6,961 bases of DNA from a virus (Duplodnaviria > Heunggongvirae > Uroviricota > Caudoviricetes), in IMG/VR virus record IMGVR_UViG_2744054675_000005, positions 1-6,961 of that record; one strand, written 5' to 3'. This document shows positions 1 to 6,961 of the stretch, piece after piece; within the stretch, counting starts at the first letter, position 1; each line of letters begins with the position of its first letter. Position numbers and translations under genes: made by a program. The notes under the pieces were generated by a model that was not told the DNA's origin, searched no databases, and saw only the letters and a list, made by a program, of their open reading frames with translations.

Positions 1-1108
1 CCAGTTGCAGGGAAGAGTATCTGCTATAAGAAAAATCACATACGTAATACCCTTCTGGCATATATGCAGCAACACTTTCCTCATCAGGAGCACATCCGGT
101 ATGATATGCACTAATTTTTGCACCAAAGCTACCATGAATTCCAACGTAGAACTTTCGAGCACCTGAATACGGATAGAAATTAAGTTCAGCTTTTTGAGTT
201 ACAATAAATGCACAAACATCGCTATCATCTCTATTTTCTTCAATCTGAATAGCAAATACAGGACTTTTTGCTGCATCGCAAATGTAAAATAAATATTTGT
301 ATTCGTAATACGTCCTAACAGTTTTAGTAAACAAACTGGTATCAGAGAAAACCACTGAGTCTTCTGATATTATTTTAATCCATGATAAGTCACATCCTGC
401 TGAAATTTCTATTTGCTCATTGAGCACAAAACCGGAAAGAATTTTAATTATGCAAAAATCAATGCCATTTTTCCATAGTGGACGCAGTGCAACAGCTGAG
501 TTTAGAGCATCACTAATAGATTTAAAATTACCATATTCCCCAACTGTTATTGTGAATGCATACCTGGAATTAAATACTGCGGCACTCTCTCCAGAGTTAA
601 TAGCTGCAGATATCATGTCATAATTTGATATAAAATCATTTGGCGTGATTATTTCTGCGTTTTTATTGTGCTGTGTTCTAAGTTTTGAATTTACATAAAC
701 ACTTTTAACTGCAATACGGGAGTCGTCAACAAGTATTTCATTACCCTCTGTTGCTAACTCTTGTCTTAACTGATCCGGGTCATACTTCAGCACATTCGGA
801 AAATAGAACTGCTGCACACCGTACGCATCATAAACAGCCATAGAATGGCCCTGTACAGTAACGAATTTGGCAATCTGTCCGTTATATACCGGATATCCAG
901 CAGCGTTAATGATGATTGGTTGCGAAACAGGAACGTGAGATCCATCTTCGTTCTCTACATAAACCTGAATCTGGTTTTCAGGATTTACCGGGTCAGTGTC
1001 AATTTTACCGATATAAATTTTGCCATTAGCTACGGCTTTAAAAGAACGCGCCATAGTGAAGAGTTGCGAAGGCATCGATACGATCACATTGGCTGTAATG
1101 TCTGTCAT
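1..1108 (-). CDS. Tailspike protein, 5' portion (3' end lies beyond the window start). Conserved P22-type N-terminal head-binding domain followed by a divergent receptor-binding domain.
   Basis: Hand translation of the minus strand from ATG at 1108..1106 gives [113 protein letters not shown]..., which closely matches the P22 gp9 N-terminus as I recall it ([11 protein letters not shown]...[34 protein letters not shown]...[12 protein letters not shown]...NVLKYDPDQ). I scanned this frame triplet by triplet and found no stop codon from 1108 down to position 2. SD GGAG lies 8 nt upstream (complement of 1117..1120). Not in the ORF track, presumably because its stop is outside the window. Confidence 0.85.
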
Positions 1109-1165
1109 TTAATTTGCTCCAGATACAAGGAATCGCCGCAGCATGGCTACGGTGAATTTTGGGCA

Positions 1166-1190
1166 TAAAAAAACCCAGCCGAAGCTGGGT
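1166..1190 (-). terminator. Rho-independent terminator downstream of ant
   Basis: Minus-strand RNA reads ACCCAGC-UUCG-GCUGGGU followed by UUUUUUU: a 7-bp GC-rich stem (1173..1179 with 1184..1190), a UUCG tetraloop, and a U7 tract (plus-strand A run 1166..1172). It lies between the ant stop (1209) and the tailspike start (1108). Confidence 0.7.
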
Positions 1191-1208
1191 CGTTGCGTTG
1201 GTTATCTG

Positions 1209-2111
1209 TCAGTAGTTATGTGCTGAAGGAGGTAATTCTTTATTCTTAAGTCTCATCCATGCGGAAAGATTCGTTGGTCCGTCTGGCTCATTAATATCAA
1301 CATCTCGTGTGTGGTTTATTAAAACGTCTCTCGCCATTCCGATAACATACGAGAATTCATGACCGTAGTCGTAGCATCTGCCGGAATAGTTCGATTGAAT
1401 TTGTTTTAATGCCGGATACAGTTCGCGGAATAATGCCTGTGAACGGTTAGCATAATCCCATAGCCATACAAGGCTGTTTGCTTCTTTTGCAGAAAGCTCG
1501 TTGGTTTTCTTCTCTTGTTTGCCAATGAGCTCACCTTCAAGCACTACCCTGTGGATGTACTCTACTGCTTGCGGTATCTGAGATGCATCAAGCTCTTCAA
1601 TACTTTCCACATTGAAACGCTGATGAATCATTGCATAAGCTTCTGGGTACATTAGATGCTTTTTGCTGACCAGCATATTTACAGCATCACGAAGCGGAGT
1701 CCTGTCATCAACAGATGTTTTCTTACGTGCATTTTCTTCCTTTCCCTTTGTCCAGTAGTCATGCAGCACAGTAAAGCATTCTTCCTGGTACTGAATAAGT
1801 TTATCGCGGATGTCAGCACGAACTTTCTCAGGGTTGATGCTGAACAGCCATCCATTTAACTTCTTCAAAGGAAGGCAGAGTAGCTTACGAAGCTTCCCAT
1901 CAGCGGCAACCATGTTCATATGAACACAGTTGAATTTGCTAATCTGCTTCATGAGTTTTGTTTGCTGCGTTGACCAGCTCATTCCAAGGTTTTCAACGAT
2001 TGGCTTCATCGCAACATATGCAACTCCGGCAGCCATGGCGGTGATAATTTGCTGACCGTTGAATGGTACGTAAGAGGTGTTCACTGCTTCTAAAATTGCT
2101 ATACTATTCAT
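1209..2111 (-). CDS. ant: Antirepressor Ant (300 aa)
   Basis: The ORF track lists 1209..2141, but position 2141 is a TTG. The ATG at 2111..2109 has SD GGAGA (complement of 2121..2125) 9 nt upstream and gives exactly 300 aa beginning [53 protein letters not shown]..., which matches my recollection of P22 Ant (length and N-terminus). The position arc -> ant -> tailspike reproduces P22 immI synteny. Confidence 0.9.
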
Positions 2112-2185
2112 GTTGGTTTTTCTCCAAGGATTTACCGACAACCGAAGCCCTGACTGTTACCGCAGTTGGGGCTTCAACTTTTCAC
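2112..2185 (+). ncRNA. Candidate sar-like antisense RNA covering the ant ribosome-binding site
   Basis: A -10-like TATACT at 2100..2105 (inside the first codons of ant, plus strand) would start a transcript near 2112 that is antisense to the ant SD (2121..2125). It would end at a hairpin (gaagccc 2144..2150 pairs with gggcttc 2169..2175, with an inner actg/cagt stem) followed by the U-rich run aacttttcacttcttt. Size (about 70 nt) and position mirror P22 sar. The -35 is weak (tgttca 2078..2083). Confidence 0.35.
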
Positions 2186-2398
2186 TTCTTTAAAGTGCCT
2201 ACCTTCTACAGTTGCTCTGAGATAAAAATTCTTATCTTTACCGTTTAGTGCTTCCCAAGCATCAACAATGCACTTATTACAGATGTGGACTTCTCGATAA
2301 CCAATAGCTTTCCTGTCAATATTAGTGAACATAACAGCTTCTTTATCTGTCAATGTGGATGCATGACAGAAGTCGCAATCTATATAAGATACCTTCAT
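2174..2398 (-). CDS. Small Cys4 zinc-ribbon protein (74 aa) inserted between arc and ant
   Basis: ORF MKVSYIDCDFCHASTLTDKEAVMFTNIDRKAIGYREVHICNKCIVDAWEALNGKDKNFYLRATVEGRHFKEVKS carries two CxxC pairs (C8/C11 and C40/C43). Its ATG (2398..2396) overlaps the arc stop codon (GTATGA), with a G-rich SD-like stretch (GAGAGGGG) just upstream inside the 3' end of arc. Same strand and operon as arc and ant. Confidence 0.55.
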   Translation of the reverse strand: MKVSYIDCDFCHASTLTDKEAVMFTNIDRKAIGYREVHICNKCIVDAWEALNGKDKNFYLRATVEGRHFKEVKS

Positions 2399-2553
2399 AC
2401 CGTTATCCCCTCTCTCTTCAGGCTGTCCAACACTCGCTTGTAAATCTCAGAGTTAACAGATCGCCCGTTCTCTTCAGCTACCTTGCGCACCAAATCCAAT
2501 ACTTCTTTAGGCCACCGCAAATTGAACTGAGGCATTTTTCTTGCACCTTGCAT
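2395..2553 (-). CDS. arc: Arc repressor (52 aa, ribbon-helix-helix)
   Basis: Hand translation of the minus strand gives MQGARKMPQFNLRWPKEVLDLVRKVAEENGRSVNSEIYKRVLDSLKREGITV, near-identical to P22 Arc as I recall it (MKGMSKMPQFNLRWPREVLDLVRKVAEENGRSVNSEIYQRV...), including the DNA-contacting strand PQFNLRW. SD GGAG sits 6 nt upstream of ATG 2553. Missing from the ORF track because it is shorter than 61 aa. An in-frame upstream ATG at 2574 (MSEMELN-) has no SD and no counterpart in P22 Arc. Confidence 0.85.
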   Translation of the reverse strand: MQGARKMPQFNLRWPKEVLDLVRKVAEENGRSVNSEIYKRVLDSLKREGITV

Positions 2554-2577
2554 ATTCAACTCCATTTCACTCATTGA

Positions 2578-2590
2578 TAGTACCGTACTA
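2578..2590. promoter_or_regulatory. Perfect 13-bp palindrome TAGTAC-C-GTACTA; candidate Mnt-type operator at the Pant start site
   Basis: Positions 2578..2590 form a perfect inverted repeat around a central C. The core ACGGT (read on the minus strand) is shared with the centre of the P22 Mnt operator AGGTCCACGGTGGACCT as I recall it. It sits just downstream of the predicted Pant -10 and just upstream of the predicted Pmnt -35, the arrangement expected for an operator that represses Pant and autoregulates Pmnt. Confidence 0.5.
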
Positions 2591-2593
2591 CTA

Positions 2594-2622
2594 TTGAAAG
2601 CGTACTACTACCGTTCTAGCAT
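2594..2622 (+). promoter_or_regulatory. Candidate Pmnt promoter (-35 TTGAAA, 17-bp spacer, -10 TAGCAT)
   Basis: TTGAAA at 2594..2599 and TAGCAT at 2617..2622, followed by SD AAGGAG (2635..2640) and the GTG start of mnt at 2647. The spacer contains the second copy of the CGTACTACTA repeat (2601..2610; first copy 2584..2593). Confidence 0.4.
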
Positions 2623-2627
2623 GTCAA
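2599..2627 (-). promoter_or_regulatory. Candidate Pant promoter (-35 TTGACA; weak -10 TACGCT), overlapping and divergent from Pmnt
   Basis: The minus strand reads TTGACA (complement of 2622..2627), a 17-bp spacer, then TACGCT (complement of 2599..2604). The consensus -35 matches the P22 Pant layout TTGACA-operator-(-10). The -10 is a poor match, so the exact start site is uncertain. Confidence 0.4.
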
Positions 2628-2646
2628 CAAATAAAAGGAGAACGAC

Positions 2647-2889
2647 GTGGCTAGAAATGATCCACAATTCAACGTAAGAATGCCTGATGAGATAAAACAG
2701 CAACTTACGCATATTGCTGCAACAAATCGCCGCTCGATAAACGCAGAGATTATTTCAGCTATCGAACTATGGATAAAAATTCATAAAGGGCAGCTAATAC
2801 CTTCAAGTAGTCGAATCCTGACAAAGTCTGAGCAAGAGGCGTTTGATGTAGCTATTGATGTGTTAAAACGTGTAAGAGATGGAGGATAA
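2647..2889 (+). CDS. mnt: Mnt-like repressor (80 aa, ribbon-helix-helix, maintenance-of-lysogeny type)
   Basis: GTG start with SD AAGGAG 6 nt upstream. The protein MARNDPQFNVRMPDEIKQQLTHIAATNRRSINAEIISAIELWIKIHKGQL... resembles P22 Mnt (MARDDPHFNFRMPMEVREKL...ANGRSMNSELL...) as I recall it. Divergent from arc across a short shared control region, as in P22. Confidence 0.85.
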   Translation: MARNDPQFNVRMPDEIKQQLTHIAATNRRSINAEIISAIELWIKIHKGQLIPSSSRILTKSEQEAFDVAIDVLKRVRDGG

Positions 2890-2891
2890 CC

Positions 2892-3125
2892 ATGGAGCAA
2901 CAACAAGGGTCGCCATTATCATTGATTATTATGGTGATTTTTTTCGTTTTTATCTTTTTTATACCTGCGTTAAAAATATCCAAAAAGGCCGGTTTTGACT
3001 GGAAGATGGCTGTATGTTTAACAATCCCTGGCTTTAACGTGGTGGCGTGGCTCGCGCTTGCGTTCATGGATTGGCCAATTCACAAGTATCTACCAAAAGA
3101 TGTGAATCGTAAGGATGCAAAATGA
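2892..3125 (+). CDS. Small two-helix inner-membrane protein (77 aa), translationally coupled to mnt; function unknown, superinfection-exclusion candidate
   Basis: ATG at 2892 lies 2 nt after the mnt stop codon, with SD GGAGGA (2881..2886) inside the 3' end of mnt. The protein MEQQQGSPLSLIIMVIFFVFIFFIPALKISKKAGFDWKMAVCLTIPGFNVVAWLALAFMDWPIHKYLPKDVNRKDAK has two hydrophobic segments separated by a short basic loop. The region is AT-rich. Confidence 0.6.
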   Translation: MEQQQGSPLSLIIMVIFFVFIFFIPALKISKKAGFDWKMAVCLTIPGFNVVAWLALAFMDWPIHKYLPKDVNRKDAK

Positions 3126-3331
3126 ATAAAAAACAGCTTATTAAGTCAAAAACGTCAAGCAAGGAAGAATTAGAGAAGGAGCTAAACTCCCTGAAATATG
3201 CTCTGTGTCTGGTTTACTCAAGACTGCCAATGGAAGATAAAAACGCCATTTACAATGAAATGATTAGCAGCCTTGATTTTAACGATAGAGACCTAGCATC
3301 CCACCTCAACAGCTTCCGCGTCCCTGAGTAA
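3122..3331 (+). CDS. Hypothetical protein (69 aa), translationally coupled to the upstream membrane-protein gene
   Basis: Its ATG overlaps the upstream stop (ATGA at 3122..3125), with SD AAGGA about 7 nt upstream. The protein MNKKQLIKSKTSSKEELEKELNSLKYALCLVYSRLPMEDKNAIYNEMISSLDFNDRDLASHLNSFRVPE is charged and predicted helical. I recognise no family. Confidence 0.5.
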   Translation: MNKKQLIKSKTSSKEELEKELNSLKYALCLVYSRLPMEDKNAIYNEMISSLDFNDRDLASHLNSFRVPE

Positions 3332-3491
3332 TTCTGTTGCGGATTTGCTTCTTGCGGTGGTTTAAGCTGGAGAGCTTGGCTTCTGCTTCTGATATTTGCG
3401 CATCTAGATCTTTAAGCTCAAGATCTGAAAGTCGCTGGTCAAGCAGGGTTTGATTCAACTCAATGTTGTTCAGGCGTTCTTCTATGGTCAT
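3306..3491 (-). CDS. Hypothetical coiled-coil protein (61 aa), convergent with and overlapping the 3' end of the 69-aa ORF
   Basis: Strong SD on the minus strand (TAAGGAG, then 5 nt, then ATG at 3491..3489). The protein MTIEERLNNIELNQTLLDQRLSDLELKDLDAQISEAEAKLSSLNHRKKQIRNRITQGRGSC has a heptad-like Leu/Ile pattern. Its 3' end overlaps 3122..3331 by 26 nt on the opposite strand. Its start is only about 15 nt downstream of the terminator hairpin, so it has no obvious promoter of its own. Confidence 0.4.
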   Translation of the reverse strand: MTIEERLNNIELNQTLLDQRLSDLELKDLDAQISEAEAKLSSLNHRKKQIRNRITQGRGSC

Positions 3492-3504
3492 GATTTCTCC
3501 TTAT

Positions 3505-3536
3505 AAAAAACCCACCTGACGGTGGGTTTCATTTCT
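3505..3536. terminator. Bidirectional rho-independent terminator between the lipoprotein gene and the mnt-side accessory genes
   Basis: Stem cccacc (3511..3516) pairs with ggtggg (3521..3526) around loop tgac, extendable to 9 bp by A/T pairs. On the minus strand it is followed by UUUUUU-AU; on the plus strand by UUUCAUUUCUU. Confidence 0.65.
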
Positions 3537-3955
3537 TAATCTTGCTTCGTGGAAGGTATAAGAGATGCGTTTGCCTCTTTTGGCTTCAAGGTATACATCC
3601 CACCATTAAATGGATCAACAGCAAGCCAACCAATTAACCCACCAAACACAAGGTTTCCACCAATATACCAACCATTAGCATTGGCTTTGATTGGCAGGGT
3701 AACTGGTTCGTACCCATCCTTTTCCATAGTGATCTGGTAGCTCTTTTTGCCAAAATAACTACCATCTGACTTGGCAAGAGTTACTCCTTGTGGAGTTTTA
3801 CCTTGCGCAACAATCACACCTGATTCATCTTTTACCTTAAAGCTCGCACCAGAAGGATTGCTGTTCACTTGCACAAGTTGCGTTTCATCACCAACAATAG
3901 TTGCGCACCCAGATAACATGATAGCGCCAGCAACGACGCTAATAATCCTCTTCAT
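3536..3955 (-). CDS. Lipoprotein (139 aa from MKRIIS; the alternative ATG at 3967 adds MEID) with a PEGA-like beta domain and a Gly-rich C-terminal segment; sits in the sieA-equivalent position
   Basis: Signal peptide with lipobox MKRIISVVAGAIMLSG|C. The mature part SNPSGASFKVKDESGVIVAQGKTPQGVTL...YQITMEKDGYEPVTLPI fits the PEGA-domain pattern (P-x-G-A ... G-x-TP ... K-x-GY). C-terminal GWYIGGNLVFGGLIGWLAVDPFNGGMY. Located directly downstream of the large ejection-protein gene on the same strand. Confidence 0.8.
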   Translation of the reverse strand: MKRIISVVAGAIMLSGCATIVGDETQLVQVNSNPSGASFKVKDESGVIVAQGKTPQGVTLAKSDGSYFGKKSYQITMEKDGYEPVTLPIKANANGWYIGGNLVFGGLIGWLAVDPFNGGMYTLKPKEANASLIPSTKQD

Positions 3956-4050
3956 ATCAATTTCCATATCTAAAAAACCGGAAACATCCTAATGACAAAC
4001 TATTCAAATGTGAAGCACGAGATAAGATCAATCCATCCGTGGACGACTAA

Positions 4051-6162
4051 TTACTCCTGTGTCATTCCGCTTAGCGATGCCACAATCCCAGCCCTCGACA
4101 AACGCTGGAACTCTTCGTTTCCTAGTGCATCGCGAATTGCTTTTACGGCGGCCTTATTTGCCATAAATCTGCGTTCCGCCGCCGCTAATGCTTCTTTACT
4201 TCCGCCAGCTCTTACTGCTTTCGTGGCTTCCTGAACTGCTTTCTCTATCGCATATCGGCCGCTACGCGTGGTGGCAATTTTAGATACAGCACCTTTTAAC
4301 CCGGCGCCAACTAAAGCACCTGCGGCAGCGCCTGCAATGCCCCCTCCTGCTCCACCAACAATGGCACCTGATGTTGAGTTGGCAATTGCATTTAACACTG
4401 TTGATGTGACGTTGGATAAACCGGCATCCAGATCGCGTAGTACATTGGCAGTTCTCCCTGTTCTTTCAATATACTGCTGAGGTTTCACTGCTGCTCTTGC
4501 AAGAGTGCCATATGCATCAGCAATTCTTCCGAGTTCTGAGGAATATCTGCTAATGGCTTTTACATTTTGTGGGGTAAGTATCCCTGCGATATGGTTAATT
4601 CCTGCTGCATCAGCTTTGCCACCACGTACACCATGCGAGATAGCATCTTGCAACATTGATGATATAGCAGGAACACGCTCTGATTCTGGCAGCGCGCGGA
4701 TCATAGAATGGAACCCAGCAGGACCATTAAGACCTTTAGCTGACGATGATTGAAGGGATTTTACTCCATTCGTAATCAGTGCATCTGTTGCCAAATCACG
4801 CCCGAAAACAGACTCTGCACTCTCTTGTGCTGATAACCTCGCTTTAGACAGATCATTAGCTTTCTGCCAGTCATCAAGAAATCCGCCGTTTTCCGCCATT
4901 GTGCGCATATCATCAGTAATTGCCCGGCGTATTTCCCCTGCTCTCCTTGCCGCATTTGCCTCTCCGCTACGCTTATATTTTTGCTCCGCATCAGCAAATT
5001 TCGCTCTCCATGCTTTCATGCCATCAAATGTTACTCCACCTTGATTGTTTGCCTGAACAAACTGTTTCATTTCAGGAGTAAGCGGTATGCCAGCAGATCG
5101 CTCTGCCTGAATAACGGCATTACCATTTAGCATTCTTGCTTTTTGATTTGGCATTGTTGACCGCACGTCATCCCATGCCGCGCGCTCGGCATCCTTCATC
5201 TGATCAAGATTTTGAAGAATCCTTTGTTTTATAGCCGCACTTTTTTCTGATGCCGTTCCAGATGCGGCCCCAAATTCATCAAGGTTTCGACTTAACTTTG
5301 ATGATATTTCGTTAAATGCTGCCTGATGGGCGTCCTGAACAATTCCTGGTGTTGATGCCAATGCGCCTTCGGCTTGTGCAATTCCACGACTTCCAGATCG
5401 CATTCCTGGTGTTAATGCGTTTATATCAATTCCAGCAGACTCAGCCGCTTTTGCTACATCTTCGGACACATTAGCGGCCTGACTGGCAATTGACTGACGC
5501 CCAGCACCTGACTTTGCCATCCTGGAAACATCATTAGCAGAATTCAGTGCTGCACCACCAAGAGCCTGTGAAACCCTTGGCGCAATAACGCGCCCGACAC
5601 CTGAAAGAACGCCTTGAGCACCAATATTGATACCACCGTTAATGGCAGCATTTTGTGCAAAGTCGCCCTCCTGATTTGCAGCATCAGCAAGAGAACCTGC
5701 AATCATGTTTCCTGCGGAACCGATATCTCCAGCGAGCTTTGCTGGCGCTCCAGCAGCTTTTGCCGCTGTGCCAATTGGCAGGAGATACCCACCAATTGTT
5801 TCACCGGCTTGCGCATAAGGGTCTGTCGGTCGATCGACTGGACGATAGACATCATCCAAAACCTTGGGGCCACCAAGCCCCTGGCTGATTGCATTAATCA
5901 GACTTGCGCCACCCTGCAATACGTCAAATGGTATGTTTACCAGACCACGGCCAGCCTGTTCTGCAATTTGCCCTGCGCTTTGACCACCAGTGAGCCAGTC
6001 AGTGGCTTTTCCTACCAGAGATTGTTCTTCTGGCTGCGATTGGTTTTGAGTGGATTGATCACCAGAAGACAGCATCTGAGCAATGCGACGTGCTCCCTCA
6101 GTATCACCGGCAGCATCAGCATTCCTTAACGCCGTCATCAACTGTTCGCGACTATAGGCCAT
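4051..6162 (-). CDS. Virion ejection (DNA-transfer) protein, P22 gp16-like by position (703 aa)
   Basis: Long GC-rich ORF with SD GGAGGG. Its start is coupled to the upstream ORF through a TAATG stop/start overlap at 6160..6164. It is the last large gene before the sieA/mnt region, which is where gene 16 sits in P22. The protein is Ala/Gly/Gln-rich and has a glycine-zipper-like hydrophobic stretch [27 protein letters not shown] (about 4288..4368). Function is assigned by synteny and composition only. Confidence 0.7.
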
Positions 6163-6961
6163 TACTGCCCTCCGAGATATTTATTAATCAGGTCATCATC
6201 AGAAAGCTGCTGTTGAGACGGTTGTATGTCCTTCCCGTATTTCTGTTGCATACGTTTCTGAGCCATCTCAGTGGTTTTTATGATTGTTTTGATAGCTGCT
6301 CTGGCTGATTTTTCAGACTGATTTGGGGACAAACTACCAATAGCATCCATTACCTTTTGCCCCTCGGCATTACTTAAAGCCCCCATCCCTTTCATCTGCT
6401 GAATGCCAGATAAGAATCCCTGAGATTTCAGTGTGTCAACCAGAGTTTCTGTATCAGCAGCCTCTGTTCCTGGAATGAATCTACTCGATAGTGGGTTTAG
6501 GTTTGTTCCGAAATATCCAGTGAATCCTGGGCTATTAAGAACTTTTGTAGCCGTCTCTATCGTTCTGGAAAGATTATCCATTCCAGAGTTGTACGCATCA
6601 GCCTTATCTCGCTTTGCCTGCTCCATAGCTTGCTGATTCTGCAATCTCTTGTCATGCAATTCAGCAAGTTTTAAGGCATTAGTTTCATTTGCGATGAGTC
6701 TGTCGTATTTCTTGTCCTCTAATTCCATTCGACGAAGATTGACATTTTGTTGCGCAATATTGTTGCTTGCCCACCCTCTGGCATTTGTCATGTCATTATT
6801 GCGGATTGTTTCGTTAATTCTTTGCTGCTCCTGCTGGCGACCAACCATCTTATCCTGATAATCCAGCATTTTATCCGGACCAACAGCCCCTAGCGTCATA
6901 GTAGTCAGCATGTGTGATAGCTGCTCTGGATTCTGGATACCTGTCTGAATCATCCAGTCAG
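6162..6961 (-). CDS. Virion ejection protein, P22 gp20-like by position (C-terminal portion; 5' end beyond the window)
   Basis: The reading frame stays open to the window edge (codons upstream of the listed Met at 6953 are not stops). Gln/Asn-rich with coiled-coil-like segments; the stop overlaps the start of the 703-aa gene. Assigned by synteny only. Confidence 0.6.

Follow-up and report, generated by a model that had tools for sequence, protein, structure and literature searches.

The closest described counterparts of the gene reported here are the tailspike genes of phages P22 (gp9), Sf6 (gp14) and HK620 (gp9). Their products are O-antigen-specific endoglycosidases, and O-antigens are the target of most characterized P22-like tailspikes. 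The tailspikes of temperate phages usually match a surface polysaccharide of their lysogens. CUS-3, for example, is a K1-capsule-specific P22-like prophage of E. coli RS218, and its endosialidase spike targets the group 2 capsule of the lysogen. Among the phages of Gram-positive hosts, phi29 carries an appendage (gp12) that digests wall teichoic acid, and the receptor-binding protein of Staphylococcus phage Andhra (gp15) has been inferred to bind the same polymer. A mosaic tailspike architecture is textbook knowledge and quite ordinary for P22-like phages.

We analyzed a stretch of viral DNA of 6,961 nucleotides (IMG/VR record IMGVR_UViG_2744054675_000005, positions 1 to 6,961), hereafter called the window. 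It very likely contains the first part of a tailspike gene from a P22-like temperate phage, with a head-binding domain joined to a foreign, AT-rich receptor cassette. The gene shares with P22 gp9, Sf6 gp14 and HK620 gp9 the PF09008 domain, the KYDPDQ linker, the gene position, a module predicted to be a beta-helix and the same point of exchange, but its receptor module has no detectable sequence similarity to theirs and the O-types of its carriers are mixed. It resembles CUS-3 in belonging to a temperate P22-like phage in extraintestinal pathogenic E. coli and in its head-binding domain (94% DNA identity over nt 1-342), whereas its module is entirely different and is not an endosialidase, and the capsules associated with it appear to be teichoic-acid-like rather than polysialic acid. 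Compared to Andhra gp15 (PDB 8egr) and phi29 gp12 (3gq7), the modeled helix domain is closely similar in structure, a likeness at the level of the fold only, with 12-17% identity (17% for Andhra) and no profile-level match; the hosts of these two phages are Gram-positive and the N-terminal attachment differs. A homologous receptor module (47% identity over 548 residues) is found in gp55, the tail fiber of the SP6-like Vectrevirus VEc3, which is a lytic phage whose protein has an adaptor of ~20 residues in place of the head-binding domain and whose specificity is probably different.

The tailspike gene and its main junction

On the minus strand, a single open frame of 369 codons begins at window position 1108 and is cut by the window edge at position 1; it matches PHROG 5662 ("tail fiber protein", E=9e-158). 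The copy of window 1-1108 in phage HZ41 is 99.3% identical, and the HZ41 frame (L001:4001-6058) encodes 685 amino acids with 99.7% identity to the window tailspike over 369 residues; the window therefore shows 54% of the gene. The gene is already present in GenBank, uncharacterized and either unannotated or named generically as a tail protein. The features of the region are as follows.

1..1108, minus strand: tailspike gene, 5′ 54% (codons 1-369 of 685), an open frame extending past window coordinate 1
770..1108, minus strand: P22-type head-binding (virion attachment) domain, residues 1-113; PF09008 positions 1-113 of 113, E=2e-66
753..777, no strand: main mosaic junction right after the conserved KYDPDQ motif, codons ~111-118, where E. 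coli and phage matches end
632..679, minus strand: "neck" motif RTQHxKN...DF, 16 residues (144-159) at the start of the receptor module, from a 23-member alignment
2..571, minus strand: N-terminal half of the predicted right-handed beta-helix, residues ~180-369, AT-rich (GC3 ~0.23)
389..415, no strand: inner junction, from which HEMP4/118UI-type genes share at least 90% DNA identity; upstream (nt 421-720) about 50-56%
1117..1120, minus strand: ribosome-binding site GGAG, 8 nt before the ATG (1108-1106), read from the sequence
1172..1191, minus strand: intrinsic terminator, tANT-like, between ant and the tailspike gene; 8-bp stem with 5 GC pairs, then a T run

Judged from PHROG matches, the genes that follow in the window are, in order, ant, arc and mnt (for two repressors of the Arc family), several small genes without known function and the genes for two DNA-transfer (ejection) proteins. 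The window is thus the end of the late operon together with the immI region of a P22-like phage. The tailspike gene lies downstream of the ejection genes and of immI (arc/mnt/ant), which is its position in P22, and the same gene order is found in the FORC_082 and MS 198-1 prophages alongside the P22 capsid, portal, gp4 and gp10 genes. The window terminator (1191-1172) has its counterpart in HK620, where a tANT is annotated at this position.

Several observations were made on the neighboring genes. The Ant protein of the window (310 aa; 1209-2141) and that of HZ41 (333 aa; L001:2899-3900) have common ends and a different middle, so ant is itself mosaic. Between mnt and the ejection genes, window 2892-3967 contains four small open reading frames encoding a 77-aa membrane protein, proteins of 69 and 61 aa and a 143-aa lipoprotein, each with a full-length match to a PHROG of unknown function; they resemble moron-type cargo, with a local GC of 0.37-0.41, and lie at the place where P22 carries sieA. 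The gp20-like frame at 6162-6953 appears truncated at its N-terminus, an appearance accounted for by the window edge.

The head-binding domain is identical to that of Sf6 gp14 at 104/113 residues (92%) and to that of P22 gp9 at 85/112 (76%), and its matches in the PDB are 7sg7, 2vky, 8tvr and 1lkt. The initial annotation had described the first ~110 codons as matching P22 almost residue for residue, a description that suits the wider family (Sf6, CUS-3, HK620) but overstates the likeness to P22 itself. It had also placed the junction at ~778/779, which is right to within a few codons. A search of the window against the 5,426 complete genomes of E. coli gave matches in 1,625 of them, and the best matches (flank identity 93-98%) all ended at window 753-777. 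The DNA matches of phages CUS-3, HK620, Sf6 and epsilon34 end at gene nt 339-355, and in a binned profile the identity to CUS-3 and HK620 falls from ~28/30 to ~10/30 (about 93% to about 35%) past gene nt ~345.

Beyond the junction, the sequence is unlike the P22 endorhamnosidase, as had been claimed: a phmmer search against the PDB aligned P22 gp9 over residues 1-116 only, and no homology to the gp9 beta-helix (residues ~125-666) was detected with phmmer or with the family profile. The term "unrelated" is accurate for the sequence of this distal part, but not for its fold class, as the module is predicted to be a right-handed beta-helix like gp9.

The base composition also changes across the gene. 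GC is 0.43 in codons 1-114 versus 0.35 in codons 115-369, with 0.32 in window 201-400, and GC3 falls from 0.43 before the junction to 0.23 after it (Fisher p=1.8e-4). The GC3 of the other genes of the window is 0.38, compared to 0.23 in the distal module (p=3.6e-6), and in the complete gene of HZ41 the GC3 remains between 0.15 and 0.27 up to the gene end. The distal part is therefore AT-richer, as had been noted by eye, and the GC3 profile along the gene is non-uniform. The shift resides in third codon positions; a single-base change-point test on GC was weak to marginal and did not reach significance, with 211 of 2000 permutations reaching the observed value.

The receptor module as a mobile cassette

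When the 254 visible residues of the module were used as the query in a word-indexed protein search, two truncated fragments were recovered; the longer HZ41 query gave 23 homologs with 36-100% identity, carried on PF09008, PF18668, PF12571 and PF03906 anchors. With an E-value limit of 1e-30, an exhaustive search of 1.84 billion cluster representatives returned 14 clusters, and with a limit of 1e-3 it returned 255; the module family is small. In the 23-member alignment, neck residues R144, K149, D158 and F159 are nearly invariant, and a set of acidic and basic residues further on is invariant (D240, D250, E291, R293, R318, K319, D358, D419, H442, D494, R496). The neck motif also aligns with Sf6 gp14, and a profile of the 23 members compared to all PDB sequences found no match past profile position ~160, beyond the neck. 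Pfam gave nothing beyond PF09008, either within the visible residues or in the complete protein, and thus no phi29-type C-terminal autochaperone domain. Two of the 23 homologs weakly match PF13229; no match to a curated beta-helix or pectate-lyase family was found for the tailspike.

A monomer model of the full-length protein P0003 (WP_004015050), which is identical to the HZ41 protein, was calculated with AlphaFold2 using the family alignment as input. The model has a pLDDT of 86 overall and above 90 for residues ~180-680, and the module is predicted to form a right-handed beta-helix of about 500 residues. Its nearest structural neighbor is the receptor-binding protein of a Gram-positive phage, the Andhra gp15 mentioned above. 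Two homologs, P0015 (863 aa) and P0019 (841 aa), have an added C-terminal SGNH/GDSL esterase domain (PF13472, PF00657), which suggests that some versions of the family also deacylate an O-acylated substrate.

Swapping of receptor-binding domains, which had been proposed for this gene, can be seen directly: the module occurs at 89-100% protein identity behind four anchors, namely the P22-type anchor of the window and those of the JEP4, 92CQ and HEMP4 types. In JEP4, a module of 100% protein identity follows a divergent head-binding domain, and the DNA identity to the window is 71-86% before gene nt ~300 and 96-100% after it. Over window 749-868, the comparison with JEP4 (L002) shows the mosaic reversed, with a divergent head-binding domain, a near-identical module and a breakpoint inside the end of the domain, so two different P22-like backbones have exchanged the module. 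The 130-kb phage 92CQ has a module of 97.5% identity behind an unrelated N-terminus, with DNA identity from gene nt ~429 and a junction at about window 680. In the 40-kb phage HEMP4 and nine E. coli chromosomes, a module of 89% identity follows a 184-aa anchor unlike the head-binding domain; megablast matches of these HEMP4/118UI-type genes begin at query nt 694, with DNA identity of at least 90% from nt ~694-720. More distant homologs (36-70% identity) have PF18668, PF12571, PF03906 or PF09008 anchors. The two protein clusters of the module comprise ~380 database members. The presence of the same module on at least four anchors besides that of the window, VEc3 included, means that the cassette moves between phages.

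Two observations concern the JEP4 records. The annotated start of JEP4_20 (L002:3876-6026, 716 aa) is apparently 31 codons early, as the domain and its relatives begin at the Met at L002:3969; the PHROG 5662 profile has the same N-terminal extension, as the match begins at profile position 37. The publication on JEP4 (PMC8425383) describes a myovirus with a ~100-nm tail, but the 39-kb genome is P22-like (Lederbergvirus) with a head-binding tailspike, so that the reported morphology and the genome disagree.

Directly after the tailspike gene, outside the window, lies a gene for a predicted membrane protein of ~99 aa (PHROG 1443, unknown function, no Pfam match). Its locations are given here.

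L001:6055-6354 (HZ41): ~99-aa membrane protein
L002:6023-6322 (JEP4): ~99-aa membrane protein
L004:7374-7658 (118UI): ~99-aa membrane protein
L008:4362-4658 (HEMP4): ~99-aa membrane protein

In the phage copies this frame overlaps the tailspike stop codon, and the protein is 90% identical between the P22-type and 118UI-type elements. It is absent after the module in the lytic phages 92CQ and VEc3. It sits where CUS-3 carries its capsule O-acetyltransferase. We regard the protein as a candidate factor for lysogenic conversion or exclusion that accompanies the receptor module.

Carrier genomes and their capsule loci

The module was found in 16 records (15 distinct genomes) among the 5,426 complete E. 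coli genomes, and these records were typed because of the usual correspondence between temperate-phage tailspikes and lysogen polysaccharides. For each chimeric query, 1,365 nt of the module were joined to 600 nt of a candidate locus as a tag. Carriers then came first among the hits, the number of places matched in a given genome indicated whether the tag was there too, and the totals gave the overlap. The presence of the K-locus was obtained from such counts in 13 of the 16 records and confirmed directly in 118UI, FORC_082 and EC332. The carriers include isolates from human, chicken, pig and seawater, and their prophages occupy argW, bio and yfgI, far from kps. Published serotypes of module-carrying lysogens were not found in the literature, nor was anything relevant on HZ41, HEMP4, VEc3 or 92CQ.

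The O15 wzx/wzy genes were present in 6/16 carrier records, including 118UI, versus 100/5,426 genomes (p=2e-7). FORC_082 is O5 and is the sole O5 carrier, MS 198-1 is O11 and has the module on two prophages, and of the other carriers seven belong to neither O15 nor O5. The carriers thus have no O-antigen in common, and an O-antigen is not the likely target. The carriers are not phylogenetically independent, as five of them look like one ST69 O15 clone. Two copies of the module each were seen in NZ_CP146687.1 (MS 198-1), NZ_AP039429.1 (EC332) and NZ_CM142789.1 (GPEC1186); of the two copies in MS 198-1, one lies on a P22-type prophage at argW, and a 729-aa version with another anchor is presumably the second.

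A kpsE tag, which marks group 2 kps loci, was positive in 16/16 carrier records compared to 31.5% of all genomes. The K-specific region of 118UI encodes a 1,248-aa protein of the CDP-glycerol glycerophosphotransferase family (TagF-like), a galactosyltransferase-related protein, a GT2 protein, an 829-aa acyltransferase and two proteins of unknown function; kpsT lies within this group of genes. This type of locus is present in 40/5,426 genomes, 10 of which are carriers, and four further tags recovered the same set. The K-locus of FORC_082 is simpler and has homologous core genes; the two loci share 47% identity in the TagF-like polymerase, 63% in the galactosyltransferase and 71% in the acyltransferase domain. 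It was found in nine genomes, of which five carry the module. The K-specific regions have a GC of 0.28-0.30 and are thus AT-rich like the module (0.37), the rest of the phage being at 0.43-0.45.

Altogether, 15 of 16 carrier records (14 of 15 distinct genomes) have one of these two K-loci, which make up 0.9% of genomes; the combined Fisher test gives p=3e-29, calculated on distinct genomes, which are not phylogenetically independent. The lysogens thus mostly carry a related type of capsule locus, as lysogens of CUS-3 carry the cognate one, and both prophage backbones occur with both K-types. The single exception, EC332, has an unrelated K-locus of the glf/dehydrogenase type. EC332 shares with FORC_082 a prophage remnant at the bio site and an island at pheV. 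Both are chicken-meat isolates, and when their loci were compared (L022 vs L024-L026) the protein accessions were identical up to KpsF and all differed from KpsE to yghD. This break indicates a later replacement of the K-locus in EC332, after lysogeny, and K-locus switching has been reported as frequent.

TagF-like polymerases are a hallmark of teichoic-acid-like capsules. K52 is the commonest K-locus in multidrug-resistant CC69 (PMC13171598). It is among the K-types with rearranged kpsM/kpsT, and 118UI, which shows such a rearrangement, belongs to ST69; taken together, these features make it probable that the 118UI-type K-locus is K52. K52 is a galactose-phosphate polymer with fructose and O-acyl substituents, and the genes of the locus, for a galactosyltransferase, a polymerase of the phosphotransferase family and acyltransferases, would be in keeping with this structure. 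Among capsule types, K52 is reported to have the highest estimated invasive potential (PMC13171598); the list given in PMC12488582 of the E. coli capsules for which phage depolymerases are known does not include it.

A candidate receptor and its implications

The near confinement of the module to strains with two related and rare K-loci suggests that its target is probably a capsule rather than an O-antigen. On this genomic evidence, we consider it likely that the module recognizes, and probably cleaves, a group 2 teichoic-acid-like capsule (the 118UI type, probably K52, and its rarer relative). Two independent leads point to a teichoic-acid-like polymer: the nearest structure comes from a phage protein linked to wall teichoic acid, a polymer that the related appendage of phi29 digests, and the associated K-loci have TagF-like polymerases. 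Recombination after the KYDPDQ linker has joined the head-binding domain (residues 1-113), which would plug the trimeric spike into the tail hub, to the foreign AT-rich cassette of neck and predicted right-handed beta-helix. In the proposed mechanism, binding and probable cleavage of the capsule would let the short-tailed virion reach the outer membrane. Such a spike would be like the CUS-3 tailspike in its biology and like the phi29 gp12 and Andhra gp15 appendages in its chemistry. Recombination at the linker, at the neck and at the inner site carries the cassette from one phage type to another, unrelated one, with the conserved neck stretch as a putative foothold.

Other explanations of these data differ considerably in their probability. 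It is quite improbable that the module is an O-antigen-specific endoglycosidase of the P22, Sf6 and HK620 kind directed at O15. This would be in keeping with the usual target of P22-like tailspikes and with the enrichment of O15 among the carriers, but those carriers also include the O11 and O5 strains and the seven of neither O15 nor O5 type, and the K-locus association is far stronger than that with O15. Moreover, the 118UI-type K-locus is present in all six O15 carriers, and this lineage with its capsule accounts for the enrichment of O15. A distal part that is simply a highly diverged gp9 endorhamnosidase, with the AT-richness due to drift or amino-acid composition and no swap, is hardly conceivable; gp9 and the module would both be right-handed beta-helices, yet this reading is refuted by the E. 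coli matches that end together at the junction and by the occurrence of the module behind other anchors.

It is also unlikely that the link with the K-loci merely reflects common ancestry or ecology and that the module binds another surface structure or is a non-enzymatic adhesin. Five carriers appear clonal, FORC_082 and EC332 share islands and a prophage remnant, and the invariant residues of the module did not point to a catalytic site. The host range of JEP4 points the same way: this phage, which like FORC_082 comes from Korean chicken, is reported to lyse 32/67 chicken isolates, including 74% of phylogroup A (PMC8425383). Such breadth would hardly be expected if the target K-types occur in 0.9% of complete genomes, unless the isolates are clonal or the spot tests over-call. 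Against this, the association is seen with two K-types and at least three O-types, in two prophage backbones, at three integration sites and in isolates from human, chicken, pig and seawater. More than half of the genomes with the rarer K-type (5/9) carry the module. Recognition of the two capsules remains the preferred reading.

The architecture of this tailspike teaches little, and the value of the finding is as a lead on specificity. What is new here is that the cassette is widely shared, together with a testable hypothesis of a capsule receptor. As a portable, sequence-defined module that tracks capsule loci, it is a candidate for use in capsule typing, in depolymerase-based therapy and in the engineering of host range, and one that can be tested directly. 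We tentatively suggest that it may be the first recognized phage receptor-binding and depolymerase family for teichoic-acid-like group 2 E. coli capsules (K52 and its rarer relative), that it may have its fold and perhaps a phosphodiester-cleaving chemistry in common with the wall-teichoic-acid-degrading appendages of Gram-positive podoviruses, and that among temperate phages it travels with the 99-aa membrane protein, which may modify or mask the receptor of the lysogen. If true, this would link the recognition of Gram-negative capsules to the teichoic-acid-binding appendages of phages that infect Gram-positive bacteria.
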